From: Acidobacteriota bacterium
Lineage (GTDB): Bacteria; Acidobacteriota; Terriglobia; Bryobacterales; Bryobacteraceae
Direction of reading: 5' to 3'
Assembly (NCBI GenBank): GCA_029776225.1
Contig: JAKOTR010000043.1
Location: 39,195 to 103,194 of the forward strand
Length of the DNA: 64,000 nucleotides
The notes beneath the pieces were generated by a model. The model ran no database searches. It saw only the letters and a program-made list of their open reading frames with translations, and was not told where the DNA came from. A program made the position numbers and the translations under genes. Numbering within the stretch: position 1 is the first letter of the stretch; each line of letters starts with the position of its first letter. This document shows, piece after piece, positions 3,882 to 24,100 of the stretch.

Positions 3882-3916
3882 TTCACTTGCCTGTATACGC
3901 GGGTTAAGCTGGAAAT

Positions 3917-4471
3917 ATGTACACCGTGGAACGACTGCTGCGCGTCTCACGGGGGGAAGAGAGCGCACGCACCACCATCGACTACCCTTTGGAGCATCTC
4001 GTGGCATGTCACCGGCGTATCGAGGAGCGCCTGGAGATGCTGGAACGCGCCGGCGCCCACCTTGCCGGACGCCCCGACGACGCCCTTGAGGCTATCGATG
4101 CCGCTTTTCGCTACTTCGACTCCAGCGGCGTGCTTCACACGGCCGACGAGGAGCAGAGCCTGTTTCCGCGGCTCCGCCCGCGCCTGCTGCCCGACGAGCT
4201 GGAGATGGTCGCCCGGCTCGACCGGGAGCACCGCGAAGCCGAGGCCCTTTACGCCGAGCTCAAGGCCGCCGTGGCGCGCCTTCGAAAAGATCCTCACAAC
4301 GAGCAGCTCGGAGAGGAGTACCGGAATCTTGTGAAGCGGTTCACCGAGCTGTACAACTCGCACATCAGGCTCGAGGACAACGAGCTCGTCCGCGTGGCGA
4401 AGCGAGACCTCACCCGCCAGGAACTGGACGCGATTTCCCGGGAAATGAAGCAGCGGCGGAATTTGTTCTGA
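3917..4471 (+). CDS. Hemerythrin-like (HHE cation-binding) domain protein
   Basis: H/E-rich helical signature (HLVACHRRIEERLE...DREHREAEALY...HIRLEDNEL). Confidence 0.7.
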   Translation: MYTVERLLRVSRGEESARTTIDYPLEHLVACHRRIEERLEMLERAGAHLAGRPDDALEAIDAAFRYFDSSGVLHTADEEQSLFPRLRPRLLPDELEMVARLDREHREAEALYAELKAAVARLRKDPHNEQLGEEYRNLVKRFTELYNSHIRLEDNELVRVAKRDLTRQELDAISREMKQRRNLF

Positions 4472-4527
4472 AATTCCGAGGCGCTCGTCCGCTGGAACCC
4501 GTTCCGCTGTGGCAGACTGGTCTGGTT

Positions 4528-4959
4528 ATGAGAGTGCTCGTCGCTTTGGGGTTCCTGTTCGGACTTTTCTCGGGCATTGCCCGCGCGCAGGCCAGCCTGG
4601 AATTGCAGGCATGCAACGCCAGAGCCCGCTCCCAGGCCGAATTGAATAAGTGCGCCGAGGAAGAACTCGGGCGCGCCGACGAAGCGATGAACCGCGCGTA
4701 CGAAGCCCTTCTGGCGAAGGCCGCGAAGCACCCGGTGGCTGTGAAGAAAATCAAGGCCGCGCAGCAGGCCTGGCTTGCGTTTCGCGAAGCTCACCTGGAA
4801 GCTGTTTTCCCCGCCGAAGACAAGCTGGCCGCTTACGGAGCAGTCCAGCCGATGTGCGCCGCGCTGCTGCGCGCCGAGCTTGCCTGGGAGCGCGCCCAGG
4901 TCCTGGAATCGATGGCGAATCCCGAGGAAGGCGATGTGTGCTGCGGGCAGCGCTACTAG
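4528..4959 (+). CDS. DUF1311 / LprI-like lysozyme-inhibitor family secreted protein
   Basis: Signal peptide. Conserved Cys pattern and AQQAWLAFREAHLEA motif typical of DUF1311. Confidence 0.6.
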   Translation: MRVLVALGFLFGLFSGIARAQASLELQACNARARSQAELNKCAEEELGRADEAMNRAYEALLAKAAKHPVAVKKIKAAQQAWLAFREAHLEAVFPAEDKLAAYGAVQPMCAALLRAELAWERAQVLESMANPEEGDVCCGQRY

Positions 4960-5847
4960 CTACTCGGGCTCGGGGTGGACGATGACGTCGGCGCCGGGCG
5001 CCACACTCTGAATCGCCCGCTCGATGTCCTCGGTCAATGCGTGCGCCGCGCGAAGCGACTGATCGCCGTCAACGAGCACGTGGACATCGACAAACAACCG
5101 GGGGCCGGAATAGCGAAGCCGCACGTTGTGGCAGTCCTTCACCCCTTCCACGGACTGGGCCGCCCCGGTGATCTTCTCCTCCAGGCCGGCCGGCGCGGTG
5201 TCGATCAGCGATGCAATGCTGCGCACCCCGAGCCTCACGCTGATCAGGATCACGATTCCCGCAACGATGATGGCGGCCACGGCGTCCGCCTGGCGCAGCG
5301 CTCCCAAGGCCGGCACCCGCTCCGAAATCAACACGCAGATGAGGCCGAGGATCACCACCGCCGAGCTCCAGATGTCCGTGCTGAAATGCAGCGCGTCAGC
5401 TTCGAGCGCCTGGCTGTTGTACTTGCGGGCCGCCCGGTAGAGCACACGGGAGCGCGAGGCGTCGACGATGATCGAGGTGATCATAACGGCAAACGACCAG
5501 AACGTCACCTCGATTTCGATTCTCTGTTCGATGAGGCGGCCTGCGGCGCCGTAGATAATCCACACGCACGTCGCCAGCAGCAGCATGGTCTCGAACAGGG
5601 CCGAGAGGTTCTCTACTTTTCCGTGGCCGTAGGTGTGCGAGCGGTCGGCGGGCTTACCCGAGATCCGCACCGAAACCCAGGTCATCAGGGCGGCTACAAG
5701 GTCCAGCCCGGAGTGCGCCGCCTCAGCGAGAATTCCAAGGCTGCCTGTGGCGGCGCCCACCAGGGCTTTGAAGGTAGTTAAACCGATGGCCGCCAGCACC
5801 GAACTCGCGGCGGCCCACCGTTTTTCTTTTTCCGCCCGTTCTGTCAA
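4960..5847 (-). CDS. Cation diffusion facilitator (CDF) family transporter; TTG start overlapping the upstream gene's stop
   Basis: CDF signatures (SLGILAEAAHSGLDLVAAL, HTYGHGKVENL). C-terminal cytoplasmic domain. Four-base overlap with the upstream gene implies co-transcription. Confidence 0.8.
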   Translation of the reverse strand: MTERAEKEKRWAAASSVLAAIGLTTFKALVGAATGSLGILAEAAHSGLDLVAALMTWVSVRISGKPADRSHTYGHGKVENLSALFETMLLLATCVWIIYGAAGRLIEQRIEIEVTFWSFAVMITSIIVDASRSRVLYRAARKYNSQALEADALHFSTDIWSSAVVILGLICVLISERVPALGALRQADAVAAIIVAGIVILISVRLGVRSIASLIDTAPAGLEEKITGAAQSVEGVKDCHNVRLRYSGPRLFVDVHVLVDGDQSLRAAHALTEDIERAIQSVAPGADVIVHPEPE

Positions 5848-8171
5848 GTCGAAAGGCCGATTTGGCAGAGGTGTTTCTCAAGCACCGTCTTTTCTTGGGC
5901 GAGATAGGCGCGGTTCCTGCGCGTGAGCTCGTCGAAATCAACCTTGTGAGCGTCGAACTCCGGTCCGTCCACGCAGGCGAACTTAACCTCCCCGCCTACG
6001 GTAACGCGGCAGCCGCCGCACATGCCAGTACCGTCCACCATGATTGGATTCAGGCTGGCAAAAGTAGGCACACCCCATTCGCGGGTGAGTTCGGCCGCAG
6101 CGCGCATCATCGGGATTGGCCCGATGACGTGGACAACACCGGGAGTGATTCCGCTCTGCTCCTTCCACGCGCGCATAAGCTGAACTACATTCCCATGGAA
6201 CGCGCCCGATCCGTCGTCAGTGGCCCAATGGACTTCATCGGCCACGGAGCGCAATTCTTCATCCAGGATAATATGGGCCGTTGACCGCGCTCCGCAGAGC
6301 GCAATCACGCGGTTGCCGGCCTCATGGAACGCCCGCACGACGGGCAGCAGTTCGGCCGTCCCCACACCGCCGGCGACGCAGAGCGCCGTGCCGACTTTTT
6401 CGATGGTGGCGGGAAGGCCCAGCGGGCCGAGCAGGTCCGCGATGTAATCGCCTGCCTCCAGCGACAGCGTCTGCCGCGAGGTTTTTCCGAGCGCCTGAAC
6501 AACGAGCCTGATGGTGCCCGCCGCGGGGTCGCCGTCCACCAGCGTGAGCGGGATGCGCTCGCTCTCGGGAGTGGGCCGCAGAATGATGAACTGCCCGGCC
6601 TTCCAGTGCCTGGCGATTTCGGGCGCCTCGATTTCCAGGCTGGCGATCTCAGGCGTGAGCAGGCGCTTGGAAACTACGCGGTTGCCGCGGCCATTGGTGG
6701 CGGTGGGTATCCCGGAAACGGCAACGCTCTTTGCTTTCGGGCGCAGTTCGCGGTCGATAGCCTCGGCGGCCGCCCGGCCGTCGCGCATCGCCAGGATCAC
6801 GGTAGCCCCGCCGCGCACAACATCCCCTCCGGCGTAGACGTTCGGCAGGCTGGTCCTGCCGGCCTCGTCGATGACAATCTTACCGCGTTTCGTAATCAGT
6901 GTCGGGGTGGCGCGCTGGACGGTGGGGTTCGGGCTCTGGCCGATTGCCATCACCACGGTATCCACCGGCATGCGGTACTCGGAACCGGGTATCGGAACGG
7001 GCCTGGGGCGCCCGGACTCGTCCGGCTCTCCAAGCTGCATGCGCTGGACTTCCATTTCCTTCAACACGCCGTTTTCGTCCCCGAACAGCCGGACGGGCAC
7101 GGCCAGAAACTCGAACTGGACGCCCTCCTCCTCGGCGTGCTCGATCTCTTCGAGGCGGGCGCGCAGCTCGGCCCGGCCGCGGCGGAACATGATGATGCTT
7201 TCACTGCCCAACCGCTTGGCCCAGCGCGCGGCGTCCATCGCGGAATTGCCGCCGCCGATGACCACGGTCCGCTTGCCCACGAGGACCGGCGTGTCACTCG
7301 CCGGGAATTCGTAGGCCTGCATGAGGTTGATCCGGGTCAAATACTCGTTGGCGGTATACACGCCCACCAGGTTCTCTCCCGGAATGCCCATCAGGTGGGG
7401 CAGGCCGGCGCCGGTGCCGATGAACACGGCGGAGTAGCCCCACTCGAAAAGCTCATCGATCGTGGCGGTCTTGCCCACGATGAAGTTGGTGCGGAACTCG
7501 ACTCCAAGCGCGCGAAGCCGCTCGATCTCCTCGTCGATAATCTGGCGCGGCAAGCGAAATGGCGGGATGCCGTAGGCCAGGACGCCGCCCAGCCTGTGCA
7601 GCGCCTCGAAAACCGTGACGCCGTAGCCTTTGCGCACAAGGTCGAAGGCGGCGATCAGCGAGGCGGGTCCGCTGCCGACCAGCGCTACTTTCAGGCCGTT
7701 GGGCGGTTCCACAGGGGGAAGCCGCCGGTCGCTCGAACTCCGCTGATAATCCGCCAGGAAACGTTCGAGCGAGCCGATCGCCACCGGCTCCAGCTTCGTT
7801 TTCGGATTGCCGAGCAGGCAAGCCTTCTCGCAGAACAACTCGTGCTGGCAAACGCGTCCACAGATGCCCGGAAATGGTGTGTACTTGCTGATGGTTTCAA
7901 AAGCGCCACCGAAGTCGCCCTCCACCATGCGGGCGATCACACTCTTGATATCGATGTGGAGCGGGCAGGCTTCCACGCATTTCGGATCCCTGCAATTCAG
8001 GCAGCGGAGCGCTTCGGTCCAAGCCTGCTCCTGGTCGAACCCCAACGCCACTTCTTCACACGTAGTGGTCCGCTTCACCGGATCCAGCAACGGAAGTTGC
8101 TGGCGCGGAATTTTGGGGTTGCGCTTGCGTTTTACCGTTGGCACAGGGGTCACGTCAGCTTTTTCGGGCAT
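5844..8171 (-). CDS. Fused NfnB/GltD-like (N-term) and NfnA/SudB/PyrK-like (C-term) oxidoreductase, single 775-aa polypeptide
   Basis: N-term: Cys clusters (CEEVALGF..CLNCRDPKCVEACP; CGRVCQHELFCEKAC) and two Rossmann folds (VALVGSGPASLIAAFDL; VVIGGGNSAMDAA) as in GltD/NfnB. C-term: FNR-like FAD/NAD module ending in a 2Fe-2S motif (MCGGCRVTVGGEVKFACVDGPEF). Confidence 0.8.
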   Translation of the reverse strand: MPEKADVTPVPTVKRKRNPKIPRQQLPLLDPVKRTTTCEEVALGFDQEQAWTEALRCLNCRDPKCVEACPLHIDIKSVIARMVEGDFGGAFETISKYTPFPGICGRVCQHELFCEKACLLGNPKTKLEPVAIGSLERFLADYQRSSSDRRLPPVEPPNGLKVALVGSGPASLIAAFDLVRKGYGVTVFEALHRLGGVLAYGIPPFRLPRQIIDEEIERLRALGVEFRTNFIVGKTATIDELFEWGYSAVFIGTGAGLPHLMGIPGENLVGVYTANEYLTRINLMQAYEFPASDTPVLVGKRTVVIGGGNSAMDAARWAKRLGSESIIMFRRGRAELRARLEEIEHAEEEGVQFEFLAVPVRLFGDENGVLKEMEVQRMQLGEPDESGRPRPVPIPGSEYRMPVDTVVMAIGQSPNPTVQRATPTLITKRGKIVIDEAGRTSLPNVYAGGDVVRGGATVILAMRDGRAAAEAIDRELRPKAKSVAVSGIPTATNGRGNRVVSKRLLTPEIASLEIEAPEIARHWKAGQFIILRPTPESERIPLTLVDGDPAAGTIRLVVQALGKTSRQTLSLEAGDYIADLLGPLGLPATIEKVGTALCVAGGVGTAELLPVVRAFHEAGNRVIALCGARSTAHIILDEELRSVADEVHWATDDGSGAFHGNVVQLMRAWKEQSGITPGVVHVIGPIPMMRAAAELTREWGVPTFASLNPIMVDGTGMCGGCRVTVGGEVKFACVDGPEFDAHKVDFDELTRRNRAYLAQEKTVLEKHLCQIGLST

Positions 8172-8309
8172 CTTCTCTATGGGTGTCCTCTACAAAATGG
8201 ATGAAAGCAATTTCAATTCCCATTGTGGCGCACTAAGAGAAATCAGATCAAATTGCCCTTTTTGTGCGCCTGGAGGACACCCGATTGCGTGATATGACCC
8301 GCTCGCCGC

Positions 8310-9008
8310 TTAGAGTTCCCTCAGTGCCCTGGGGAACAGCACGTTGTTTTCCAGGTGAATGTGCTGGTGAAGGTCCGCTTCCAGTTCCTGCAGTCCCGTG
8401 TAGAGGGCGCGGAAGGTCGCGCAGGCATCGGGCGGAAGCGTATAGTCGCTGGTGATTTTGCGCATCTGTGCAAGCGCTTCCCCGGCGCTGTCGTGCTCAT
8501 GGATCATCATCCGGATCGGATTTTCGATATGGCCGAAGGGCATCGGCTCGGGCGGGCGCCCCTCCTGGCGCGCGCGCTCGGCTGACTCGATGGCGGGGAA
8601 CAGGATGAACTCTTCCTTCCTGAGGTGAGTCAGAAGCTCGTTTTGCAGCCCCTCAAAAACTTCTTGGAGCCTCTTCAGCATCTCCCCGTGCGCCGCACTA
8701 TGAGCCTCGATGACGCGGGCGAGCCTGGCATCGAGCGCGGGCAGTTCCGCTTTCAGATATTCGTGGTGTGTCGAGACGATGTGGTCGGTCAGTTCGCAGA
8801 GCGCGGCTTTGGTCCAGTCCTTCTCCGGCGCGCGGGCGGCAGCCGCCTGCACTTCGGCCAGAACGGCTTCGGGTGAGAGGCCTCGCTCGCGGCAGACTTC
8901 CTCGAGCGGCCGGTTCCCGCCGCAGCAGTAATCGATCTTGTACTTCTCAAAGACCCGCACGGATGCCGGCTGTTCAGCCGCAATCTCCCCAACGGTTTGC
9001 CGATTCAT
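8310..9008 (-). CDS. ric: Iron-sulfur cluster repair di-iron protein (RIC / ScdA / YtfE family)
   Basis: N-terminal DYCCGG motif and hemerythrin-like His/Glu repeats (HHEYLKAELP...HEHDSAGE...HQHIHLENNVLFP). Confidence 0.85.
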   Translation of the reverse strand: MNRQTVGEIAAEQPASVRVFEKYKIDYCCGGNRPLEEVCRERGLSPEAVLAEVQAAAARAPEKDWTKAALCELTDHIVSTHHEYLKAELPALDARLARVIEAHSAAHGEMLKRLQEVFEGLQNELLTHLRKEEFILFPAIESAERARQEGRPPEPMPFGHIENPIRMMIHEHDSAGEALAQMRKITSDYTLPPDACATFRALYTGLQELEADLHQHIHLENNVLFPRALREL

Positions 9009-9251: not shown

Positions 9252-9265
9252 GTGACGAGTGTCAC
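9252..9265. promoter_or_regulatory. Perfect GTGAC-N4-GTCAC dyad centred 41.5 bp upstream of the radical SAM ATG (9300)
   Basis: Sequence gtgacgagtgtcac read directly. Spacing to the ATG matches the hemerythrin site, suggesting class-II-like activation and short or absent leaders. Confidence 0.5.
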
Positions 9266-9299
9266 AGAAAAGTCCGGCGTTCGGGATTACCCTCAAAGC

Positions 9300-10379
9300 A
9301 TGAGAGACTTCTCGCAGGCGCCCTTTCTGGTGATCTGGGAGGTGACTCAGGCCTGCGATTTGGCCTGCGTGCACTGCCGCGCCTCGGCCGAACCCCGCCG
9401 GCATCCGCTCGAACTCACCACCGAAGAAGGGTTTCGATTGCTAGATGAAGTCCGGGAGTTCGGCGATCCGCTGGTGGTTTTTACGGGCGGCGACCCGCTG
9501 AAGCGCCCGGACCTGTTCGAACTTCTGAAATACAGCGTGGACCTGGGGTTGCGGACCACCGTGACGCCGAGCGCCACGCCGCTGCTGACCGCCGAAGCCA
9601 TCGAGCGGTTTCGCGACTGCGGCGTTTCGCGCATGGCCGTCAGCGTCGACGGACCGGACGCGGCCACGCACGACGATTTCCGCCGCGTGCCGGGGTCCTT
9701 TGACCGCACCATGTTCGCGCTGGAGCACGCCCGGCGCATCGGGCTTGAAACCCAGGTCAACACCACCGTGACCCGGCTGAACAGGGACACGCTGCCGCGG
9801 ATAGCCAATCTGGTCGCCGCGTCGGGCGCCCGTCTATGGAGTGTCTTTTTCCTGGTTGCGACCGGCCGCGCCCTCCGCACCGATGACCTGGACGCGGACG
9901 CCTACGAGGAAGTCTTTGCCTACCTCTACGAACTGTCGAAGACCGCGCCTTTCGACATCAAGACCACCGAAGCGCAGCATTACCGCCGCTACGTCGCGCA
10001 ACAGAGGAAGCGTGAGGGCGGCGCCGCAGGTTCTCCCAAGGCGCCGGCCGGCCCCATCCAGCGCCAGGCGGGCATCAACGACGGCAAGGGGTTTGTCTTC
10101 ATTTCCCACACGGGGGAGATCTATCCCAGCGGCTTTCTGCCCGTGTCAGGGGGAAACGTCCGGCAGGATTCGCTGGTTGAGGTCTACCGGACGTCCCCGC
10201 TGTTTGTGGCGTTACGGAACCCGGACCGGCTGCGGGGCAAGTGCAGAATCTGCGAATACAGGAACTTGTGCGGGGGATCGCGGTCGCGGGCTTACGCGCT
10301 GACGGGGGACTGGCTGGCGGAGGACCCCAAGTGCGCGTACGAGCCGCGCGACAGGCATGTTGCACTTGTTAACAGTTAG
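9300..10379 (+). CDS. Radical SAM / SPASM-domain protein (AhbD/NirJ/PqqE-like architecture), function unknown
   Basis: CDLACVHC (CX3CX2C) after VIWEVTQA. GGDPL SAM-binding motif. C-terminal Cys-rich SPASM region (CRICEYRNLCGGSRSRAYALTG...CAYEP). Start placed at ATG 9300 (the ORF's 9252 start lies inside the dyad site). Confidence 0.8.
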   Translation: MRDFSQAPFLVIWEVTQACDLACVHCRASAEPRRHPLELTTEEGFRLLDEVREFGDPLVVFTGGDPLKRPDLFELLKYSVDLGLRTTVTPSATPLLTAEAIERFRDCGVSRMAVSVDGPDAATHDDFRRVPGSFDRTMFALEHARRIGLETQVNTTVTRLNRDTLPRIANLVAASGARLWSVFFLVATGRALRTDDLDADAYEEVFAYLYELSKTAPFDIKTTEAQHYRRYVAQQRKREGGAAGSPKAPAGPIQRQAGINDGKGFVFISHTGEIYPSGFLPVSGGNVRQDSLVEVYRTSPLFVALRNPDRLRGKCRICEYRNLCGGSRSRAYALTGDWLAEDPKCAYEPRDRHVALVNS

Positions 10380-10614
10380 GATTGTTGCGCTTTGCGACTT
10401 TTGACCCATGGGTGAGGTATTTTGCCCCACTCATTGCGGAGAATCGCACCCGTTCCTCCGAATCCTCATTTGAGGCTCCTCTGCATCCCCATTGAAAAAT
10501 AAAAAGATTCCATACTTTCCGATCTGTATTAAGATGCATGAATGTTGGAGGTACGCCTGCTCGGAATCGCAGCGCACTATTGTGAGTTGGCTAGGTTATC
10601 TGGAGGATGCGTTT

Positions 10615-12657
10615 ATGCGCTCACGGTTTTCTTTTTCGATCGCGGTCAAACTCGTGCTTGTCCTCGCCTTCCTGGCGGGTTCCGCAATTCTGTTAAGTAG
10701 TTCCGATAAGCCCGCGTTCACCGCGATGGACAAGGCGTTCTACGCCGACGCCAATGCTATCAACTTCGTCCGGCCGGGCCTGGACATCAAAATCGAGTCG
10801 GCCAGCATTGAAGCCGACGGCACGATCAAGGCCCGGATCAAGGTGACGGACCCCAAGGGCCTGCCGCTGGACCTCGATGGGGTTACGACGCCGGGAACCA
10901 TTTCGACGCGTTTCGTGATCGGTGTCATTCCGAATGGGCAGAAGCAGTACATCTCCTACATCACCCGGCAGGTGACCAGCACGATCACGAATCAGACCGC
11001 CACCCAGGCCACTTACGATTCCGGCGGCACATTCACCAAAGAGGCCGACGGGGTCTACACATACACCTTCGGGGCGAAAGCGCCGGCCAATTTTGACCGC
11101 AGCGCGACGCACAGCATCGGCGTATGGGCGGCCCGCGACCTGAGCGAGTTCGATCTGGATGCCGTTGCGAATTACGACTCCGACGTGTTCCACTTCGTTC
11201 CCAACGGCAGCCCGGTGACGGTGACGCGCGACGTAATCCGCACCCAGAGCTGCAACAAGTGCCACGATCCGCTGTCGGCGCACGACGAACGGCAGGGCAT
11301 TGAACTGTGCAATATCTGCCACAACCCCCAGAGCAGCGATCCCGACACCGGCAACACAATCGACATGGTTGTGATGACCCACAAGATCCACATGGGCAAG
11401 GATCTGCCGAGTGTGAAGGCGGGCGGCAAGTATCAGCTCATTGGCTACCGCAACACGGTGTACGACTATTCCACTGTGGGCTTCCCGGCCGATGCCCGGC
11501 GCTGCACCTTCTGCCACGAGCAGAACACTGGCGCGGCGCAGGCTACCGCTTATCTGAAGCCGAGCCGCGTGGCCTGCGGCTCCTGCCACGACAACGTGAA
11601 CTTCGCCACGGGCGAGAACCACGTGAACCTTCCGCAGCTCAGCGATAACCTGTGCGCGAATTGCCACATCCCGCAGGGCGAGCTGGACTTCGACGCCTCG
11701 GTTATCGGCGCGCACACGATTCCGGAGTTCTCGAACGAGCTGCCCGGCACGGTCTTTGAGATCGTCGACGTTCGCGACGGCGAGGCGGGCAAGAATCCGA
11801 CCGTAACCTTTACGGTGAAGGATAAGGCCGGCAACCCGGTCACGGACATTTCCGGGATGCGCCTATCGCTCGTTCTGGCCGGGCCGACGACGGACTACTC
11901 CAGCTACGTTTCGGAGACCGCCAACGGCGCGCAGGGCTCGGGCGGAACCTATACCTACACCTTCAAGCAGGCGATCCCGGCTGATGCCAAGGGCACCTTC
12001 GCGGTGGGCATCGAAGGATACCGCACTGTAACCCTGCTCGAGGGGACCACGCGGCAGATGAGCGTTCGCGATGCCGGCATGAACAAGGTGTATTACTTCT
12101 CCGTGGACGGCTCGCCGGTCACTCCGCGCCGGCAGGTGGTGAGCCTGGAGAAGTGCAACTCCTGCCATGCGTCGCTCTCCGCGCACGGCGGCAATCGCAA
12201 CACGATCGAACAGTGCGTGCTTTGCCACAACCCGCTTAAGACCGACGCCGCCGCCCGGCCCGCCGAAGAGAAGCCGGACATGACCATCCAGATGGCCTAC
12301 ATGATCCACCGGATCCACACCGGCGAGGACAGCCCGTCCGAAATCGTGATCTACGGGCACAACAGCACCCGTTACGACTTCGGCCACGTCCGGTATCCGG
12401 GTGACAGGCGCAATTGCAACGCTTGCCACGTCAACGGTTCCGAACAGCTTCCGCTTTCGGAAAGCCTCCTGAACGTCAACAACCCGCGGGGGGTGTTGAA
12501 CCCGATGGGACCGGCTACGGCGGCCTGCACCGGTTGCCACACCAGCATAGCGGCGGCTTCGCACGCTTTGTCGAACACGACCCAGCTTGGGGAAGCCTGC
12601 GCCGCGTGCCACAAGACCGGCAACGAATTCAGCGTGCCGAAGGTACACGCACGTTAG
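10615..12657 (+). CDS. Decahaem c-type cytochrome, OmcA/MtrC-like (outer-membrane/extracellular type)
   Basis: 10 CXXCH motifs arranged 5 + (~150-aa haem-free beta-rich domain) + 5. Signal peptide MRSRFSFSIAVKLVLVLAFLAGSA. GGAGGA RBS 7 nt upstream of ATG 10615. The ORF-track 10492 start is a TTG extension into AT-rich promoter DNA. Confidence 0.75.
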   Translation: MRSRFSFSIAVKLVLVLAFLAGSAILLSSSDKPAFTAMDKAFYADANAINFVRPGLDIKIESASIEADGTIKARIKVTDPKGLPLDLDGVTTPGTISTRFVIGVIPNGQKQYISYITRQVTSTITNQTATQATYDSGGTFTKEADGVYTYTFGAKAPANFDRSATHSIGVWAARDLSEFDLDAVANYDSDVFHFVPNGSPVTVTRDVIRTQSCNKCHDPLSAHDERQGIELCNICHNPQSSDPDTGNTIDMVVMTHKIHMGKDLPSVKAGGKYQLIGYRNTVYDYSTVGFPADARRCTFCHEQNTGAAQATAYLKPSRVACGSCHDNVNFATGENHVNLPQLSDNLCANCHIPQGELDFDASVIGAHTIPEFSNELPGTVFEIVDVRDGEAGKNPTVTFTVKDKAGNPVTDISGMRLSLVLAGPTTDYSSYVSETANGAQGSGGTYTYTFKQAIPADAKGTFAVGIEGYRTVTLLEGTTRQMSVRDAGMNKVYYFSVDGSPVTPRRQVVSLEKCNSCHASLSAHGGNRNTIEQCVLCHNPLKTDAAARPAEEKPDMTIQMAYMIHRIHTGEDSPSEIVIYGHNSTRYDFGHVRYPGDRRNCNACHVNGSEQLPLSESLLNVNNPRGVLNPMGPATAACTGCHTSIAAASHALSNTTQLGEACAACHKTGNEFSVPKVHAR

Positions 12658-12762
12658 TTGATCCGGGTATAACTAGTAAACGTGCGCACACAACCTATGA
12701 AGCACACGGTCTTGCCGCCGTGGCTGTCGAACGCAAACCGCATTCCTCCTCCTCCTCCTCCA

Positions 12763-13737
12763 ATGCCGATCGGGAGGCCCTGGGCGGGCCTCCCGTGTGC
12801 GTTCGCAGCCATGGCGGCTCTTGTACTTTTTTCCGTTTCCCTCGCGGCCCAGCAGGACCAGGAGAGCGAGCAGACTCAGCAGGCCCAACAGACCCAGCAA
12901 CAGTTGCCTCCGGGCTACGCAGGTTCAGACGTCTGTCTGGGGTGTCACGACGACCTTGGAAAAGCGTTCACCAGAAATCCGCACCACCTTGTCGAGACGG
13001 GCAAGGCCAAGACCAAGACGAACTGGCAGGGCATGGCTTGCGAGTCCTGCCACGGGCCGGGCGCCAAGCACGCGGAAACCGTCTCGCCGTCCGACATCAT
13101 CAACCCGGCTAAGCAGACCGCGGCGAAGGCGAGCCAGAGTTGCCTGGCGTGCCATCTGAATAATCCCATCCACGCCGGGTGGGCCCGCAGCAGCCACAAC
13201 AAGAACCAGACTCCCTGTACCTCCTGCCATGCGATTCACAAGGGCCAGGAGGCGCTGCGTCCGGCGAGGTTCATGGAGATCAACAAGCTCTGCGCGAGTT
13301 GCCACACCTCGGTCTGGGCCCAGTTCGCCAAACCTTACAAGCACCGGCTGGACGTAGGGGCGATGTCGTGCACGGATTGTCACAATCCTCACGGGACGTT
13401 TCTGCCGGGCTCCGTCCGGACGGTGGCCGCCAACGAGCGTGCGTGCTACAAGTGCCACCCGGACAAGACCGGCCCGTTCCCGTTCCCGCATGCTCCGGTG
13501 CAACTGGAGGGCTGCGGGACGTGCCATGAGCCGCACGGCTCAGCGAACCCGCGGATGCTGACGCGCTCCGAGGTGCGGTTCGTGTGCCTGGAGTGCCACT
13601 CGAATATCACCGCGGGTAAAACGATTGGCGGGGTGCCGCCGGCATTTCACGATATCAGGAGCCCGCGTTTCCAAAACTGCACCATATGCCACACCAAGAT
13701 TCACGGTTCCTATGTGGATCCGGGGCTGGAGCGATAG
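12763..13737 (+). CDS. Periplasmic decahaem c-type cytochrome, MtrA/DmsE/PioA-like (start uncertain: 12697, 12763 or 12811)
   Basis: 10 closely spaced CXXCH motifs in ~300 aa. Signal peptide. Low-complexity Q-rich linker after the signal. Confidence 0.75.
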   Translation: MPIGRPWAGLPCAFAAMAALVLFSVSLAAQQDQESEQTQQAQQTQQQLPPGYAGSDVCLGCHDDLGKAFTRNPHHLVETGKAKTKTNWQGMACESCHGPGAKHAETVSPSDIINPAKQTAAKASQSCLACHLNNPIHAGWARSSHNKNQTPCTSCHAIHKGQEALRPARFMEINKLCASCHTSVWAQFAKPYKHRLDVGAMSCTDCHNPHGTFLPGSVRTVAANERACYKCHPDKTGPFPFPHAPVQLEGCGTCHEPHGSANPRMLTRSEVRFVCLECHSNITAGKTIGGVPPAFHDIRSPRFQNCTICHTKIHGSYVDPGLER

Positions 13738-13739
13738 CG

Positions 13740-15743
13740 ATGAGAGCACTTCTGATTATCCTGATCGCGCTTCCGCTTGCGGCCCAGGCGCCGGTCGGTT
13801 CGCAGGCGCCCGTACCGCCGCCGCCGAAGGACGCCATTCCTCTGGTGCAGCAGCCGGACCTCACCGCTCCGCCCGACGAGCCTTTCCTCACCGGCAACCT
13901 GGATGTCGGCTACCGCTGGGTCAGTGGCGTGGGCGGCGACTTCAACACCTATCGCAGCGTCGTGAACCTCGGCGACGGACCCAGGCTGTTCAACCTCGAC
14001 GCGGTCATCGTGCCGCCGGCGTGGAAGTTTGCCGACCGGATCCAGGTGAACGCGAACAACTGGGGCGGGGATCCGTATAACTTCGCCCGGGTGAGCGCGC
14101 GCAAGCTGGGTGTCTACGACTTCTACTGGAACTACCGCAACATCGCGTACTTCAATTTCCTGCCGTCGTTCGCCAATCCGAACCTGGAGCGCGGCATTTT
14201 TCTCAACCAGCGGGGCTTCGACACCTTCAAGCGGATCAACGACGCCGAGCTGGTGCTGAGGCCGGGGCGGAGCATCACTCCGTACGTCGCCTACAGCCGC
14301 AGCGGCGACCGCGGCACGGGCACCACGAACATTGTTCTGGAAAGCAACGAATACACCGTGCCGGACCGGATCGATAACAACGTCAATATCTACCGCGCCG
14401 GCAGCAGGTTCCAGTTCAACCGGTACAACCTGACGCTGGAAGCCGGCGGGATCTCCTACGACAACGACCAGCGCGTTGAGATCGGAGATACGCCGAATTT
14501 CGGCAACCGCACGACTCCCTTCTTGGGGCAGACTCTGTTTCTGACGCAGGGTTTGCAGAGCTACAACGTCAGCGGCAGCGGCGTCTTCACGCGGGGGATG
14601 TTTGCCGCGAACCCGGTGAATTGGGCCGATGTGTTCGGGCAATTCGAGTTCAGCCAACTGAAGAGCACGACCCGCTTCAGCGAGAACGCCGCCGGGAACC
14701 TGGTGAACCTGGCGGCGGTATCGTTCTTCAACGAACTGATCCGGACGGCGGACTCGCGCGTCAAGCAGCCGCACCCGTCGGGCCAGATCGGGGCCGAATT
14801 GCGGCCCACGCGATGGCTGCGCATCCTGGAGTTCGCCTCCACCAACCGCCTGCACAACGCCGGTACAGAACTGCTGATTGACCGCATGCTGTTTGCGGGC
14901 CTTCCGCCGACGGAAGAGGTCGTGAACCTGGCCGAGCGGCTGGAAGTGACCTACAACCAGCAGCAGGTGAACTTCCTGTTCGACGTCACGCCGAGGCTCA
15001 TGCTTCGAGCCGGGCACCGGTACGTCTGGGGAGAAGCGGAGGCGCCCGCCGCCCTTATCCTGGGGGGCGTGGGAACGGAATCGGCCAAACTGCGCAGGAA
15101 CGTGGCGCTGGCCGGAGCCACCTGGCGCAGCCCGCGCAAGCTGCGCGTCACGGTGGAGTACGAAGGCTCGCCGGGCGACCGTTCGTTCTTCCGCACCAGT
15201 GTGAACGAGTACCAGAAGGGGCGCGTGATGGCGCGCTATCAGGCGCTGCCCTCGCTGGCGCTAACCTTCAATTTCGGAATCTTCGACAACCACAACCCGG
15301 CGCCGAGCCAGTACGATTTCCAGAGCCGGGACGCCTCGCTTTCCGCCTACTGGGCGCCCCAGGGAGGCAAGCGGGTGAGTTTCATTGCCGAATACGCGCG
15401 GGCAACCGTGAGCTCGGATATCAGTTTCGTGGTGCCGAACACGCTTCAGGAGGCGCTCTCGGTTTATCGGGAACGTTCGCACACGGGACTGCTGCTTGCG
15501 GAATTCCCGCTTCCGGGGCGCGGGGTGTTCCAGCCCAGGCTGGATGTCGGGGGATCGCTGTTCTATTCGACGGGCACGCGTCCCTCGCGGTACTACCAGC
15601 CGTTCGGCAGGTTCCGCCTGCCCCTCGGCGAGCACGTCGCCTGGTACGGCGAGTGGCGGTGGTACGGCTTCACCCAGCCGACGTTCCTGTTTGAGGGATT
15701 CCGCTCCAACCAGGTGATCACCGGCCTGCGGTTCTTCATGTAG
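13740..15743 (+). CDS. Putative outer-membrane beta-barrel porin, MtrB/PioB-like (~667 aa)
   Basis: Signal peptide MRALLIILIALPLAAQA. No Cys. Rich in Y/F/N/G/S/T/R with aromatic C-terminus (GLRFFM). Sits directly downstream of two decahaem genes in mtrC-A-B order. Confidence 0.55.
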   Translation: MRALLIILIALPLAAQAPVGSQAPVPPPPKDAIPLVQQPDLTAPPDEPFLTGNLDVGYRWVSGVGGDFNTYRSVVNLGDGPRLFNLDAVIVPPAWKFADRIQVNANNWGGDPYNFARVSARKLGVYDFYWNYRNIAYFNFLPSFANPNLERGIFLNQRGFDTFKRINDAELVLRPGRSITPYVAYSRSGDRGTGTTNIVLESNEYTVPDRIDNNVNIYRAGSRFQFNRYNLTLEAGGISYDNDQRVEIGDTPNFGNRTTPFLGQTLFLTQGLQSYNVSGSGVFTRGMFAANPVNWADVFGQFEFSQLKSTTRFSENAAGNLVNLAAVSFFNELIRTADSRVKQPHPSGQIGAELRPTRWLRILEFASTNRLHNAGTELLIDRMLFAGLPPTEEVVNLAERLEVTYNQQQVNFLFDVTPRLMLRAGHRYVWGEAEAPAALILGGVGTESAKLRRNVALAGATWRSPRKLRVTVEYEGSPGDRSFFRTSVNEYQKGRVMARYQALPSLALTFNFGIFDNHNPAPSQYDFQSRDASLSAYWAPQGGKRVSFIAEYARATVSSDISFVVPNTLQEALSVYRERSHTGLLLAEFPLPGRGVFQPRLDVGGSLFYSTGTRPSRYYQPFGRFRLPLGEHVAWYGEWRWYGFTQPTFLFEGFRSNQVITGLRFFM

Positions 15744-20487: not shown

Positions 20488-21663
20488 ATGCGGCATTCGA
20501 ACGCACCGAAAAGCGCGACTTCCCACGAAACTGTCCCCCGATATTACGAATGGAAAGTTGAGGGGCGTGTTCCGTCGATTCAGCTAAGCCTGGCCGTTGT
20601 TGAGCGAATGGAAGCCGACATCATGAAAGGCTTCTGGGCCGTCCCCAAGCGCGGCATGGAGGTGGGCGGCGTCCTCCTCGGACGCGTCGAAACGAACGGC
20701 GATCCGGTGGTCATTGTCGACGACTATGAGGCCGTTCCCTGCGAACACCGGCGCGGTCCTTCCTACGTGCTTTCCGAACCCGACCGCAAGCGGCTCGAAA
20801 AGGTGCTGCGGCGGGCAACCGGGAGCAAGCAGGTCGTGGGTTTCTACCGCAGCCACACGCGTCTCGGGCTCTATCTCGACCAGGACGACATGGCCGTGAT
20901 CGACAACTACTTCGCCGGCCCGAACCATGTTTTTCTCCTCGTCCGGCCGGACGCCACCAAGCCGGGCGCGGCTGGCTTCTTCATCCGCGAGGAAGGGGAT
21001 ATACACAGACAGTCCACCTACCTGGAATTCCCGTTCAGCCGCAGGGAGCTCCTGAAACAGAGCGGGGCCGCGATCGAGCAATTGGAAGAACCCGCTCCCG
21101 CGCCGCCGCCGCCCCCTACGCGGATTTCACTCCCGCGTCCTGTCGCGCTGCCCGCACTACCGCTGCGCATGCCGCGGGTGAAGTGGGGGCTGGTTGGAAA
21201 GATCGCGGCGGGCCTGGCCGCATTCGCCTTCCTCGAATACCAGGTGCTCACTCAGACCCGCTCTCCGGAAATTGTTCTTGTGGACTTCGCACCCTCGCTT
21301 TCGGTTGCGCCGAGCGGCGCCTACCTGCAAGTGAGCTGGAACCGCAACGCCCCGGCGGTGCTCAAGGCGGAACGCGGCATCCTGCACATTACCGAAGGCG
21401 GATTCCGGAAAGAATTGAACCTGGACGAACAGCAGCTCCGCACCGGCGCGGTGATCTACGCGCCCCGAAGCAACGAGGTGAACTTCCGGCTCGACCTTCT
21501 GAAAGGGCGGACAACGGTGACCGAATCGCTGCACTTCCTTTCGGCGCGCAAAGAGCCGGTGGAGGTTGCCGCGGCGCCCCCGCCGGAAGAGCCCAAGAAG
21601 CCCAGCTCCGTGGAGGTCAAAACGCCGCCGCGGCAGCGGGTGTTTTTCGATGACGGCCTGTAA
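20488..21663 (+). CDS. MPN/JAMM-like domain protein with one TM segment and long C-terminal extension; JAMM metal motif degenerate
   Basis: EVGGVLLG...VVGFYRSHTRLGLYLDQDD resembles the MPN fold but has HxR in place of HxH. Hydrophobic segment WGLVGKIAAGLAAFAFL. Confidence 0.5.
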   Translation: MRHSNAPKSATSHETVPRYYEWKVEGRVPSIQLSLAVVERMEADIMKGFWAVPKRGMEVGGVLLGRVETNGDPVVIVDDYEAVPCEHRRGPSYVLSEPDRKRLEKVLRRATGSKQVVGFYRSHTRLGLYLDQDDMAVIDNYFAGPNHVFLLVRPDATKPGAAGFFIREEGDIHRQSTYLEFPFSRRELLKQSGAAIEQLEEPAPAPPPPPTRISLPRPVALPALPLRMPRVKWGLVGKIAAGLAAFAFLEYQVLTQTRSPEIVLVDFAPSLSVAPSGAYLQVSWNRNAPAVLKAERGILHITEGGFRKELNLDEQQLRTGAVIYAPRSNEVNFRLDLLKGRTTVTESLHFLSARKEPVEVAAAPPPEEPKKPSSVEVKTPPRQRVFFDDGL

Positions 21664-21699: not shown

Positions 21700-23349
21700 C
21701 TACCCCAGTTGAACCAGGACCGGCTTTTCGGTCTTCAGCCCCAGCATCTCCAACTGCTTCTCGAACGGCATCGAATACTTGCGCTCGATCTTTTCCCGGT
21801 AGGTCGGCCCGGCGTTGTAGGCGCAGAACGGATAGATCAACCCGTTCGGGGCCGCATAGTGGATCACGCAGCGCTTCACCCGCTCGATGTCGTAGTTGTA
21901 GGCATCCATGAAGTGCATGCCCGCAACCATCAGCGTCTTGTAGGTGTAGCCTTGCTCCTCCATCTTGCCGCGGCCGTATTCCTTGTCCATCAGCCCCTGA
22001 AGCGTCTCCAGGAATTTGGCGAACGTAAGGCCCTCGGGCGCGCGGTCCTCGTGATAGTGCTTGCGCAGCGAGTTCCACGCCTTCATCTTGGAGAAGAACT
22101 TGATCCGCTGTTTGCCGAGGGTCCGCGACATCATGTCGAGATCCTGGAGAAACGCGCCGATGTCGACAAACCGGGTGATCGGCGTGGCCTTCTTGTTCTT
22201 GTCCACGAAGAGGTAGGTGCCCATCGAACAGTGCGGGTTCGGCGTCAGAGTGGGAATTTCCTCTCCGCGCAGCGCGCCGAGGAACTTGGAGAACGGCGCC
22301 ACGCAGGACAGCGGGAACCAGTCGTCGAACGGATCGCAGATGCCCGTCTGCTCGTGCACCGCCCGCGCTACGTCCGACATCGTGAACCGCTTGGCCTCCA
22401 GCTCCTTGCGCGAAATCCGCCCCGTGAAGGAAACCGGCTGGTAGCTGATGGCGCTCACCACGTCGATATTCTCCAGAGCGAGCCGGAGAATGTCGCCGAT
22501 CTGGTGATCGTTGAATCCCTTCACGATCGTCGGCACGAAGCAGATCTTCATCCCGGCCTTGCGGACGTTCTCGATGCACTTGAGTTTCTTGTCCAGCAGG
22601 GACTCGCCGCGGGTGCGCTGGTAGATGTCCTCGCAAACGCCGTCGAACTGAAGGTACAGCGTGTGCAGGCCGGCCTCTTTCGCCTTCATGGCGAACTCGA
22701 GGTCCGTGAACATGATGCCGTTGGTGGCGCACTGGATGTGCGAGAAGCCCATCTCCTTGGCCATCCTCAGGACTTCGAAGAAGTGCGGATAGATGGTCGG
22801 TTCGCCGCCTGAGAACTGTACGATGCGGTTCGCTACCGGTTTTTCGTTGCGGAGCGCGGTGAGCATGCGGCGGACCTGCTCCAGGCTCGGCTCATAGAGG
22901 TACCCTGCCGCGTTGGCATTGGCGAAGCAGACCGGGCAGGTCAGGTTGCAGCGGTTCGTCAGGTCCACGTTCGAGAGCACCGTGTGGCTCATGTGCATCG
23001 AGCACAGGCCGCACTGGTCCGGGCAGCGGCTCGCGTTGGGAATCGCCGGGTTGCTGACCCCCCGGTTGTCTCCGAAGCTCCAGTTCTCCATCTTGAGATA
23101 CAGCCGGACGTCCGAGTAGACCATGTCCTTGAAATAGCCGTGCTGCGGGCAGGTCTTCTCCATCATGACCTTCCCGTCCTCCTCGAACACCCGGGCGTCA
23201 ATGACCCGTATACACTCCGGGCACAGCGACTGCGTAATCTTCGGCAGACCGCGGCGGATCGGCTCGATCGGCGAGCCTCCGAAGGTGGTTTCCGGCTGGA
23301 TGATCTTGAAATCCTTCGCTGTCTCCGGCGAAAAGGTTTGGGTACTCAA
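21700..23349 (-). CDS. Radical SAM protein with N-terminal Cys-rich/zinc-ribbon region and tandem CX3CX2C motifs; candidate tetraether/membrane-spanning lipid synthase (Tes/GDGT-MAS)-like
   Basis: CPEC...CPQH, then CPDQCGLC and CNLTCPVC 20 aa apart. VQFSGGEPTIYPHF SAM motif. TTG start with AGGAGG 8 nt upstream. Confidence 0.7.
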   Translation of the reverse strand: MSTQTFSPETAKDFKIIQPETTFGGSPIEPIRRGLPKITQSLCPECIRVIDARVFEEDGKVMMEKTCPQHGYFKDMVYSDVRLYLKMENWSFGDNRGVSNPAIPNASRCPDQCGLCSMHMSHTVLSNVDLTNRCNLTCPVCFANANAAGYLYEPSLEQVRRMLTALRNEKPVANRIVQFSGGEPTIYPHFFEVLRMAKEMGFSHIQCATNGIMFTDLEFAMKAKEAGLHTLYLQFDGVCEDIYQRTRGESLLDKKLKCIENVRKAGMKICFVPTIVKGFNDHQIGDILRLALENIDVVSAISYQPVSFTGRISRKELEAKRFTMSDVARAVHEQTGICDPFDDWFPLSCVAPFSKFLGALRGEEIPTLTPNPHCSMGTYLFVDKNKKATPITRFVDIGAFLQDLDMMSRTLGKQRIKFFSKMKAWNSLRKHYHEDRAPEGLTFAKFLETLQGLMDKEYGRGKMEEQGYTYKTLMVAGMHFMDAYNYDIERVKRCVIHYAAPNGLIYPFCAYNAGPTYREKIERKYSMPFEKQLEMLGLKTEKPVLVQLG

Positions 23350-23515
23350 TGCTTACGTCCTCCTGGAACTTCGTCTTGGACAGGGCCAGTGTGATTATAA
23401 GGATAACAAGATCCTCTATACACCATAAGTACAGCAGAATGCGAGGTTTCCCGGTTGTACGGTGATATTTGGGATTGAACGGGGCGCCCCTCCGGCGGAA
23501 GCGCCCCCGCTGCGG

Positions 23516-24016
23516 CTAGGACACTGCTTTCCGTTTCACCGGAATGTAGAGAAACATGGGGCCGCCGGCGTCGAACTCCGGCGTGTAGTACTCAAAGCAG
23601 GGATGCGTCGCGCACTCGCACCCGGCTGGACCGCAGTACGGCTCCCACTCCGTGAGCCGGCTGAGCGTTTCCGGCGCTGAGCCCCATGCCTGGCCCAGTT
23701 CCCCCAGCCCGGAGACCGGGATCACCACGTAATCACCCCGGGGGATATCGACCGCCACCATCCCGGCCGGCGGCGCCGCGCCCGGTTTGGCCTCCACCGC
23801 GGCCACGTACTCGAACGTGCCGTCCCTGGCTCCGGGGACGCAGCGGCATATCCCGAACGCGGCGGGGCGCTCCGGCATGTCGATTTCATGCCGCCGCGGC
23901 ATAAACTGCTGTTCCCACAACCGTGCGACCTCCTGGTTTTCGTTCTTGCCGGTATAGGACAACCCGATAATGCGGCATGGCCCGAATTCTTTGATTTCGA
24001 CCTGACCCTGGCTCAT
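23516..24016 (-). CDS. GyrI-like small-molecule-binding domain protein
   Basis: IKEFGPCRIIGLSYTG...WEPY...FEYY pattern typical of GyrI-like/AraC effector domains. ATG 24016 with GGAGGG RBS preferred over the ORF's TTG at 24031. Confidence 0.55.
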   Translation of the reverse strand: MSQGQVEIKEFGPCRIIGLSYTGKNENQEVARLWEQQFMPRRHEIDMPERPAAFGICRCVPGARDGTFEYVAAVEAKPGAAPPAGMVAVDIPRGDYVVIPVSGLGELGQAWGSAPETLSRLTEWEPYCGPAGCECATHPCFEYYTPEFDAGGPMFLYIPVKRKAVS

Positions 24017-24100
24017 TGGAAGACCCTCCAAGAGCCACTGTGGGCGAAAAGGAGGCGAAAATCAAGGGGAAAATACACTGCCCGGCGGGCCGGCCGGCTA

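Follow-up and report, generated by a model that had tools for sequence, protein, structure and literature searches.

BrGDGTs are among the most used terrestrial proxies for palaeotemperature and pH. The enzymes that make them remain unproven candidates, and knowledge of the producers and of their physiological response is therefore limited. For the step that couples the tails in Acidobacteria, homologues of archaeal Tes are the foremost candidates; they were proposed in 2022 as synthases of brGDGTs and iso-diabolic acid (PMC8941075, PMC10087280). Here we ask whether a gene within a 64-kb stretch of acidobacterial DNA (the window) encodes an enzyme of this type. The original prediction, which was made from the letters of the sequence, described its product as a radical SAM protein resembling Tes/GDGT-MAS, and noted that bacterial Tes homologues are discussed for branched GDGT and iso-diabolic lipids in Acidobacteria, which is indeed a published hypothesis.

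The gene, called tes here, is real, and its codon-position GC (0.54/0.39/0.88) is typical of the real genes of the window. Its TTG start is well supported by an in-frame stop two codons 5′ of it, by an AGGAGG sequence 9 nt ahead of it, by close homologues of 549 residues whose alignments span 100% of the protein length, and by independent gene calls on four public contigs, each of which gives a 549-residue product identical to that in the window. The upstream intergenic region, in which there is an exact TATAAT, probably holds a promoter of the gene's own. A scan of this region with the sigma-70 consensus found no promoter, a search of its 166 nt for an FNR/CRP-type box (TTGAT-N4-ATCAA, with up to two mismatches) found none, and the sole terminator-like site from the scan falls within the neighbouring gene. 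The identical protein is present in many public assemblies, and NCBI already names one member of its 90%-identity cluster ‘tetraether lipid synthase Tes’. The host is an uncultured, soil-type acidobacterium of the Bryobacteraceae type, from a lineage that has been assembled recurrently.

Table 1. Location of tes and of its predicted features in the window, with the evidence for each.
Feature	Position (nt)	Strand	Evidence
tes, Tes/GDGT-MAS-family radical SAM enzyme (CDS including stop; 549 aa, TTG start)	21700..23349	-	Window ORF list, NF045702, 7tol_A, 7TOM superposition, public gene calls
Upstream intergenic region, 166 nt	23350..23515	-	Shine-Dalgarno AGGAGG 23359-23364; exact TATAAT 23394-23399
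N-terminal rubredoxin-like ribbon, residues 36-78	23116..23244	-	Pfam PF23545 Zn_ribbon_HMPTM, E 8.5e-21
N-terminal auxiliary [4Fe-4S] motif CPDQCGLCSMH, residues 109-119	22993..23025	-	Alignment to MJ0619
Radical SAM core, residues 130-291	22477..22962	-	Pfam PF04055, E 2e-27
C-terminal auxiliary-cluster domain, residues 374-509	21823..22230	-	Invariant Cys, M478, Y498

The protein belongs to the Tes/GDGT-MAS family. NF045702, the curated NCBIfam equivalog model for tetraether lipid synthase Tes, matches residues 39-528 over profile positions 2-485 of 486, with a score of 587.9 bits that exceeds the cut-off of 450 by 138 bits. In a search of the PDB, GDGT-MAS MJ0619 of Methanocaldococcus jannaschii (7tol_A) was the sole strong match (E 3.6e-141; runner-up, E 1.6e-06), and identity to the crystallised enzyme (PDB 7TOL/7TOM) is 44% across 492 aligned residues. 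Because this match is full-length, with so low an E value, the resemblance in motifs to GDGT-MAS is far beyond chance. The comparison that had been suggested as a check, in which the curated model and MJ0619 took the place of MA_1486, thus came out for Tes. A better match to another subfamily, coupled with no similarity to Tes/GDGT-MAS, had been named as the result that would speak against the assignment; TrsS (NF045646), the next distinct NCBIfam family, gives 339.9 bits and does not reach its cut-off of 490.

The metal sites and active-site residues were mapped by aligning the protein to MJ0619, with metal ligands as given in PMC9433317, and conservation was assessed in a set of 44 diverse family sequences. 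An N-terminal Cys-rich, zinc-ribbon-like segment in a protein of 549 residues had been described, and it is there. Its CX2C...CX2H pattern (CPEC at 43-46, C67 and H70) corresponds to C9, C12, C33 and H36 of MJ0619, which form a rubredoxin-like mononuclear Fe site (PMC9433317); C67 and H70 are invariant, C43 and C46 are at least 90% conserved, and the ribbon of tes is likewise a predicted mononuclear Fe site. In the N-terminal auxiliary motif, C109, C113 and C116 correspond to C73, C77 and C80 of MJ0619, and H119 is a conserved His (H83 by alignment), all four being at least 90% conserved. The sequence CNLTCPVC (134-141; nt 22927-22950) supplies C134, C138 and C141, the equivalents of C98, C102 and C105, which are invariant together with the GGEP motif at 181-184. 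Both of the CX3CX2C motifs noticed originally are therefore present, but they are separated by 17 residues (25 from start to start) and not by 20. The radical SAM core was also correctly recognised, although it does not follow both motifs, since CNLTCPVC is itself the radical SAM motif.

Residues F142, N144, A145, G182, Y232, D236, R247, Q304, S307 and R311, which contact SAM or 5′-dA, are identical in MJ0619; the last three lie just past the 3′ end of the radical SAM range in Table 1. The long C-terminal domain that had been reported corresponds to about 250 residues beyond the radical SAM domain. Here, C374, C494 and C509 are invariant across the 44 sequences, from which we infer that they are the ligands of the C-terminal auxiliary [4Fe-4S] cluster. 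M478 (conserved in 40 of 44) is the equivalent of the labile Met439 of MJ0619 and Y498 (39 of 44) that of the strictly conserved Tyr459, both of them named in PMC9433317. Altogether, the 15 named SAM and active-site residues and every published metal ligand of MJ0619 are identical in the protein, and the original prediction was right in proposing a layout with several [4Fe-4S] clusters and one rubredoxin-like site.

Structure prediction had been advised as a check alongside this mapping. By Foldseek, an AlphaFold model of the protein (pLDDT 86.7, pTM 0.89) superposes on 7TOM with an E value of 2.2e-55, a TM score of 0.84 normalised to the query and 0.92 to the target, and an rmsd of 2.4 Å, in an alignment of 502 columns. 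The next fold, MoaA, reaches a TM score of about 0.5, for the radical SAM core alone. As modelled, the protein shares the four-domain fold of GDGT-MAS, consisting of a ribbon, an N-terminal auxiliary cluster, a radical SAM core, and a C-terminal auxiliary cluster. It differs from MJ0619 in coming from a bacterial host, in about 35 additional N-terminal residues, which are modelled with low confidence, and in having Gly477 and Val495 in place of Cys438 and Cys456.

These similarities make it likely that tes encodes a bacterial Tes/GDGT-MAS orthologue that couples lipid tails to form membrane-spanning lipids of the iso-diabolic-acid type, with the substrate and product predicted by homology. As in MJ0619, the C134/C138/C141 cluster would reductively cleave SAM, and the resulting 5′-deoxyadenosyl radical would take a hydrogen off a lipid tail at its terminal methyl carbon, the tail lying in a hydrophobic tunnel. 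The C-terminal auxiliary cluster (C374/C494/C509, with M478 as its cap) would then hold this carbon radical through a C-S bond. Another SAM would give rise to a further tail radical, whose attack on the parked carbon would form a Csp3-Csp3 bond. Bacterial lipids fit the pocket of the Tes/GDGT-MAS family. The expected substrate of tes is an iso-branched fatty acyl or alkyl glycerolipid, with tails such as iso-C15, whereas that of MJ0619 is a phytanyl ether; the isopropyl end of an iso-branched chain is chemically equivalent to a phytanyl terminus. The products may be membrane-spanning tetraesters of the iso-diabolic-acid type, or brGDGTs and brGTGTs if an ester-to-ether reductase is present elsewhere in the genome. 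Radical SAM chemistry is oxygen-sensitive and many Bryobacteraceae are aerobic, which counts against a role in membrane-spanning lipids.

Several related systems have been described in bacteria. Tes homologues are described in Ca. Solibacter usitatus Ellin6076 and Ca. Koribacter versatilis Ellin345 (Zeng et al. 2022; Halamka et al. 2022); they come from the same phylum as the tes host, are similar to tes in their identity to archaeal Tes (40-42% to MA_1486; PMC8941075), and have the same proposed role in brGDGT and iso-diabolic lipids; the two genomes are not among the 80 related loci compared here. S. usitatus, which belongs to the same acidobacterial group as the host (database matches bear the label Bryobacteraceae or Solibacteraceae), has Tes homologues and produces both brGDGTs and brGTGTs (PMC10087280); for this species a brGDGT pathway made up of Tes, PlsAR/Ger or ElbD, and Grs has been proposed. 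According to the summary in PMC13023045, possession of Tes alone or of Tes with Ger tracks the production of tetraesters or brGDGTs, respectively, in two cultured Acidobacteria. The culture study of Chen et al. 2025 (Geochim Cosmochim Acta 401:190) is cited here as summarised by PMC13023045 and PMC13274423. Tes is not the general acidobacterial route to iso-diabolic acid, because only 3 of 14 Acidobacteria that make it have a homologue (PMC13159169). The only bacterial enzyme with experimental proof of such coupling is Mss, from Thermotoga maritima and Thermoanaerobacter ethanolicus (Sahonero-Canavesi et al. 2022), which joins two fatty-acid tails tail-to-tail to give diabolic and iso-diabolic acids. 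It is a radical SAM enzyme like tes, but of another family by its published description; species bearing Mss lack a Tes homologue and the Acidobacteria examined lack Mss (PMC13159169).

Gene order in related genomes points towards a function in lipid metabolism. Seven loci of related acidobacteria have a Tes-equivalog gene that scores 560-572 bits and lies directly upstream of a PlsA-like gene, with a PlsR-like gene next on the same strand. The PlsA-like gene has two BcrAD_BadFG domains and a DUF2229 domain; PMC13159169 gives the same layout for the ether-lipid enzymes PlsA/Ger. At an eighth locus, a distant one, the PlsAR-like gene is fused and stands 4 kb from the Tes gene. The linkage was seen in essentially two lineages, neither of them that of the tes host. 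Since Tes-equivalog genes adjoin PlsA/PlsR-like genes in another acidobacterial lineage, a role for them in membrane lipids is supported. A more tentative proposal, to which we give rather less than even weight, is that Tes and a PlsA/PlsR-like reductase make up a compact, sometimes operonic module, for coupling then reduction or the reverse, that defines bacterial producers of brGDGTs, with tes of the window as the coupling half, acting in a facultative anaerobe when oxygen is low; the window also contains an MtrCAB-like cytochrome cluster and further genes of an anaerobic type. The pair of tes and plsAR could in that case mark environmental sources of brGDGTs.

The same radical chemistry might instead act on another substrate, either some other hydrophobic molecule that ends in a methyl group or, if coupling is intramolecular only, a lipid that becomes macrocyclic. 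MJ0619 itself also yields macrocyclic archaeol (PMC9433317), many producers of iso-diabolic acid lack Tes (PMC13159169), and papers as late as June 2026 still treat bacterial Tes activity as a candidate that awaits validation by genetics or enzymology (PMC11868695; preprint 10.64898/2026.06.23.733905). The Tes family has also diversified in bacteria, as some relatives have a divergent second paralogue with a score of 307 bits, under the cut-off of 450. This longer protein (ORF of about 700-780 aa) has the Zn_ribbon_HMPTM and Radical_SAM domains of tes and is 33-35% identical to it; its gene and tes form a tandem pair in some Bryobacterales/Solibacteraceae MAGs (L014, L041, L044, L076) and was absent from the window by tblastn. 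By its score, the protein studied here is of the high-scoring Tes type, distinct from the divergent paralogue. It retains every named active-site residue of MJ0619, and the PlsA/PlsR-like linkage in relatives suggests glycerolipids, which makes a different substrate unlikely. Even less probable is that the product is macrocyclic archaeol or a true isoprenoid GDGT, in a host also equipped with ether-lipid genes of the archaeal type. The identity of 44% to an archaeal enzyme and the conservation of the substrate tunnel residues that were checked would be in keeping with such a product, but no GGGPS/DGGGPS-type gene was found among the approximately 55 window genes scanned, no GDGT-making bacterium was known to Zeng et al. 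(PMC8941075), and S. usitatus, cultured and of the same group, makes branched and not isoprenoid tetraethers (PMC10087280).

Two further readings have a negligible probability. Several homologues carry the JGI label 7,8-dihydro-6-hydroxymethylpterin dimethyltransferase (HMPTM), a pterin C-methylase, which also appears in the Pfam name of the ribbon domain; this is a legacy annotation spread by similarity, and nothing in the scanned window genes points to methanopterin biosynthesis. Lloyd et al. could not corroborate this activity of MJ0619, and what they demonstrated for it was the coupling of lipids (PMC9433317), so that the HMPTM identity is effectively refuted for the type member of the family. 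That the product is a radical SAM (seleno)protein like TrsS, or belongs to some other subfamily close by, is suggested by the rank of TrsS as the next distinct NCBIfam match, but its score is well under its cut-off, that of the Tes model is clearly surpassed, and the tes reading frame is unbroken and thus contains no internal UGA for selenocysteine.

Membrane-lipid coupling by a Tes enzyme is a well-founded and unsurprising proposal for this gene, with its functional part a candidate based on sequence. The overall picture is unchanged by tes, since the hypothesis was put forward in 2022 and the Tes name is already in use at NCBI for such proteins. As a clean and complete orthologue whose catalytic features are all intact, and which comes from a Bryobacteraceae lineage that has been assembled repeatedly, the gene is a reasonable choice for synthesis and testing.

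The neighbours of tes are unrelated to it. The 64-kb window lacks PlsA/PlsR, Ger, ElbD and Grs-like genes; a Pfam scan of approximately 55 window genes found no further lipid gene, and tblastn with PlsA-like, PlsR-like and long-Tes-paralogue queries found none besides tes. The order tes-dnaG-rpoD is kept in 7 of the 80 related loci, all of them Bryobacterales-like, and only the closest MAG retains the JAB-domain and GyrI-like neighbours; the neighbourhood therefore appears to reflect lineage history and not a functional cluster. The only other tblastn match in the window was an unrelated SPASM-type radical SAM gene (9252-10379).

The protein encoded by tes belongs to the Tes/GDGT-MAS family, as the original prediction had proposed. 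It matches the NCBIfam equivalog NF045702, 'tetraether lipid synthase Tes', over the full profile with 587.9 bits (cut-off 450), rather than fitting best to another characterised radical SAM subfamily. Among all PDB sequences, the sole strong match is the GDGT-MAS of Methanocaldococcus jannaschii, MJ0619 (7TOL/7TOM; E 3.6e-141, query residues 30-535), to which it is 44% identical over 492 aligned native residues; the next match has an E of 1.6e-06. The family is sizeable: 652 clusters reached E <= 1e-30 when 1.84 billion cluster representatives were searched exhaustively with HMMER.

The open reading frame is a real gene. An in-frame stop lies two codons 5' of its TTG start, a 9-nt spacer separates AGGAGG from this start, and the GC content by codon position (0.54/0.39/0.88) is in line with the real genes of the window. 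The identical protein occurs on four independent public contigs, where the gene call gives the same 549-aa product that had been predicted, and 47 blocks of the assembly collection index it, including the NCBI MAG GCA_035402105.1, with constant neighbours.

Lloyd et al. described four metal sites in MJ0619 (PMC9433317), and predicted ligands for all of them align in the tes protein (see table), in agreement with the several [4Fe-4S] clusters and rubredoxin-like site of the layout originally proposed. The cysteine-rich, zinc-ribbon-like N-terminus is evident as CPEC (43-46) with C67 and H70. Both proposed CX3CX2C motifs are present, CPDQCGLC (109-116) and CNLTCPVC (134-141), spaced by 17 residues rather than 20. 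The radical SAM core does not follow both of them: the Radical_SAM Pfam domain spans 130-291, and CNLTCPVC is itself the radical SAM motif. The expected long C-terminal domain comprises ∼250 residues beyond this. In an alignment of 44 sequences (32-93% identity), also used as AlphaFold2 input, the radical SAM cysteines, C67, H70, C374, C494 and C509 are invariant, and conservation of the remaining metal ligands is 90% or more. C374, C494 and C509, the three cysteines that are invariant in the C-terminal part, probably ligate the C-terminal cluster. Residues of the 5'-deoxyadenosine/methionine site of MJ0619 (F106, N108, A109, G145, Y195, D199, R210, V236, T238, Q268, S271, T273 and R275) are identical in the tes protein, and the strictly conserved Tyr459 corresponds to Y498. 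The predicted structure (mean pLDDT 86.7, pTM 0.89) has 7TOM/7TOL as by far its top Foldseek match (E ∼2e-55, target-normalised TM 0.92, rmsd 2.4 Å over ∼500 columns). The next matches, MoaA, SkfB and viperin, cover the radical SAM core only (TM ∼0.5).

Features of the window, of related tes loci (L handles) and of the tes protein
Feature	Position	Strand	Details
tes	21700-23349	-	549-aa ORF, TTG start
GyrI-like small-molecule-binding protein	23516-24031	-	upstream of tes, same strand
alpha-L-arabinofuranosidase		-	upstream of tes, same strand
JAB/MPN-domain protein	20488-21663	+	391 aa; convergent with tes; then dnaG, rpoD downstream
Crp/Fnr-family regulator	3160-3843		
Hemerythrin	3917-4471		
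775-aa protein	5844-8171	-	Fer4_20, Pyr_redox_2, DHODB Fe-S domains
ScdA/RIC-type di-iron repair protein	8310-9008	-	
TIGR04053 radical SAM/SPASM protein	9252-10379	+	475 bits (cut-off 395); precedes MtrCAB-like set
MtrC/MtrF-like protein	within 10492-15743	+	721 aa; 10 CXXCH motifs
MtrA-like protein	within 10492-15743	+	351 aa; 10 CXXCH motifs
MtrB/PioB porin candidate	within 10492-15743	+	685 aa; weak match, 23.5 bits
Multihaem-TPR protein	55450-58218	+	922 aa; 5 CXXCH motifs, C-terminal TPR repeats
tes in L061, L064, L065, L066, L070, L073	about 10001-11580		
tes in L067	5021-6580		
Fused PlsA/PlsR-like gene	L063:1234-5673		1480 aa; 4 kb upstream of tes; eighth, distant locus
Longer Tes-family paralogue	L014:7469-9817, L041:7520-9625, L044:3452-5695, L076:4827-7049		upstream of tes
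Cys-rich protein (examples)	L028:7071-7487, L038:9209-9634		∼140 aa
Rubredoxin-type Fe	C43, C46, C67, H70		MJ0619 C9, C12, C33, H36
N-terminal auxiliary [4Fe-4S]	C109, C113, C116, H119		MJ0619 C73, C77, C80, conserved His
Radical SAM cluster CX3CX2C	C134, C138, C141		MJ0619 C98, C102, C105
C-terminal auxiliary [4Fe-4S]	M478, with C374, C494, C509		MJ0619 labile Met439 (+ Cys)

By homology with MJ0619, SAM would be cleaved at the radical SAM cluster and a hydrogen abstracted from the terminal methyl carbon of a lipid tail; the radical would be trapped as a C-S adduct at the C-terminal cluster until a second SAM generated a second tail radical, and a C-C bond would then join the tails. Ester or ether lipids of bacteria are structurally plausible substrates, since an iso-C15 terminus is chemically equivalent to a phytanyl terminus (PMC8941075) and MJ0619 binds ester-linked bacterial phosphatidic acid without reading the head group (PMC9433317). 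Use of another substrate, or macrocyclisation that is purely intramolecular, is unlikely, and true isoprenoid GDGT synthesis much more so, with no supporting genes seen among the ∼55 scanned in the window. Several homologues carry the JGI name '7,8-dihydro-6-hydroxymethylpterin dimethyltransferase', a legacy of the original assignment of MJ0619, which Lloyd et al. were unable to reproduce (PMC9433317); that the protein is a pterin methylase is highly improbable. Membership of TrsS, its nearest other NCBIfam family, is just as improbable, at 339.9 bits under a cut-off of 490. All four readings are weaker than coupling of bacterial lipid tails by a Tes enzyme.

The original prediction was thus right in observation and family, and tes is a new and complete addition to a bacterial Tes clade that had already been recognised. 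The suggestion that bacterial Tes proteins are candidates for branched GDGT and iso-diabolic acid lipids in Acidobacteria has published precedent. Zeng et al. 2022 identified 456 homologues in bacteria, with the best ones in Ca. Koribacter versatilis and Ca. Solibacter usitatus, and suggested that they take part in brGDGT synthesis (PMC8941075); Halamka et al. 2022 reported brGDGTs and brGTGTs in S. usitatus and proposed the order PlsAR, Tes, Grs (PMC10087280). A different radical SAM enzyme, Mss, is proven in Thermotoga and Thermoanaerobacter; no Mss was found in the Acidobacteria examined, and of 14 producers of iso-diabolic acid only 3 had Tes (Sahonero-Canavesi et al. 2022, PMC13159169). 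As summarised in PMC13023045, iso-diabolic tetraesters are made by K. versatilis, which has Tes only, and brGDGTs by S. usitatus, which has Tes and Ger. Bacterial Tes activity was described as experimentally unvalidated in 2025 (PMC11868695) and June 2026 (10.64898/2026.06.23.733905). The functional hypothesis is already published and automated annotation already uses the Tes name; tes is of value as a well-characterised candidate with which to obtain the experimental proof that is still missing, and tes-plsA-plsR linkage in its relatives lends supporting context.

Within the window, tes is a stand-alone gene. An exact TATAAT in the 166-nt spacer 5' of it suggests that it is probably transcribed separately; a consensus promoter scan called nothing upstream. 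No obvious lipid-biosynthesis gene was seen among the ∼55 genes scanned over 64 kb, and tblastn of the window found neither a PlsA/PlsR-like nor a second Tes-type gene. The convergent JAB/MPN protein has a weak N-terminal domain match (24 bits), a linker rich in proline and a C-terminal part without family match, and is kept in the closest MAG only (66% identity).

The closest homologues (71-93% identical), some already named 'tetraether lipid synthase Tes' by NCBI, come from Bryobacteraceae, Bryobacterales and Solibacteraceae MAGs. One member of the protein's 90%-identity cluster is labelled as a 'Rhodospirillales bacterium' MAG, probably mis-binned because all others are Bryobacteraceae. Scanning one genome per GTDB species gave 240 relatives, mostly from Acidobacteriota, of which 80 were fetched as loci; relatives with 50-60% identity are found in MAGs of Eisenbacteria, Poribacteria, Auribacterota, Gemmatimonadota, Thermodesulfobacteriota, Nitrospirae and Actinomycetota. 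The tes-dnaG-rpoD order is kept in only 7 of the 80 loci, all Bryobacterales-type.

One functionally informative pattern emerged when all neighbouring ORFs were clustered. Seven related Acidobacteriota loci (L061, L064-L067, L070 and L073) have, on the strand of tes and ∼0-350 nt downstream of it, a ∼1035-aa PlsA-like gene, which a ∼430-aa PlsR-like ORF overlaps and follows. The PlsA-like protein has two BcrAD_BadFG ATPase domains and DUF2229, as reported for Ger and for PlsA of the plasmalogen system PlsA/PlsR; Ger and PlsA/PlsR turn the ester bonds of glycerolipids into ether bonds (PMC13159169; 10.64898/2026.06.23.733905). The linked tes genes score 560-572 bits and, having passed the equivalog cut-off of NF045702, belong to the same family as that of the window. 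These genes apparently form a three-gene cluster for ether/membrane-spanning lipids in one Acidobacteriota lineage. The linkage is guilt by association in about two lineages, neither that of the window's organism. PMC13023045 and 10.64898/2026.06.23.733905 report that tes co-occurs with ger or elbD at the level of the genome; no mention of physical tes-plsA-plsR linkage was found in the literature consulted.

Other neighbours recur. Some Bryobacterales/Solibacteraceae MAGs carry a longer Tes paralogue (Zn_ribbon_HMPTM and Radical_SAM, 33-35% identity to tes; 307 bits, under the Tes cut-off), adjoining tes in three loci and ∼3.5 kb away in L044, which may be the 'second Tes homologue' described for S. 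usitatus. In 15 Terriglobia loci, a ∼140-aa cysteine-rich protein that contains CxxC pairs and matches no Pfam or NCBIfam family is encoded upstream on the same strand. In most of these loci its gene lies ∼370 nt from tes, but in L040 and L043 the distance is ∼3.7 kb; the protein may be a redox partner or have no connection with tes. A LolA-like lipoprotein-carrier-fold gene lies directly 3' of tes in six non-acidobacterial MAG loci (L053, L054, L057, L072, L075 and L078; Eisenbacteria, Actinomycetota-labelled and Deltaproteobacteria-labelled), which hints at a lipid-handling partner.

Elsewhere in the window, an MtrCAB-like porin-cytochrome set and the preceding TIGR04053 protein, a relative of the haem b synthase AhbD, suggest extracellular electron transfer and a facultatively anaerobic lifestyle. 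Genes of oxygen/NO-stress type cluster at 3160-9008. The multihaem-TPR protein has weak cytochrome c554 and MtrC-domain matches, and its gene is followed by one for an FG-GAP/ASPIC-UnbV protein.
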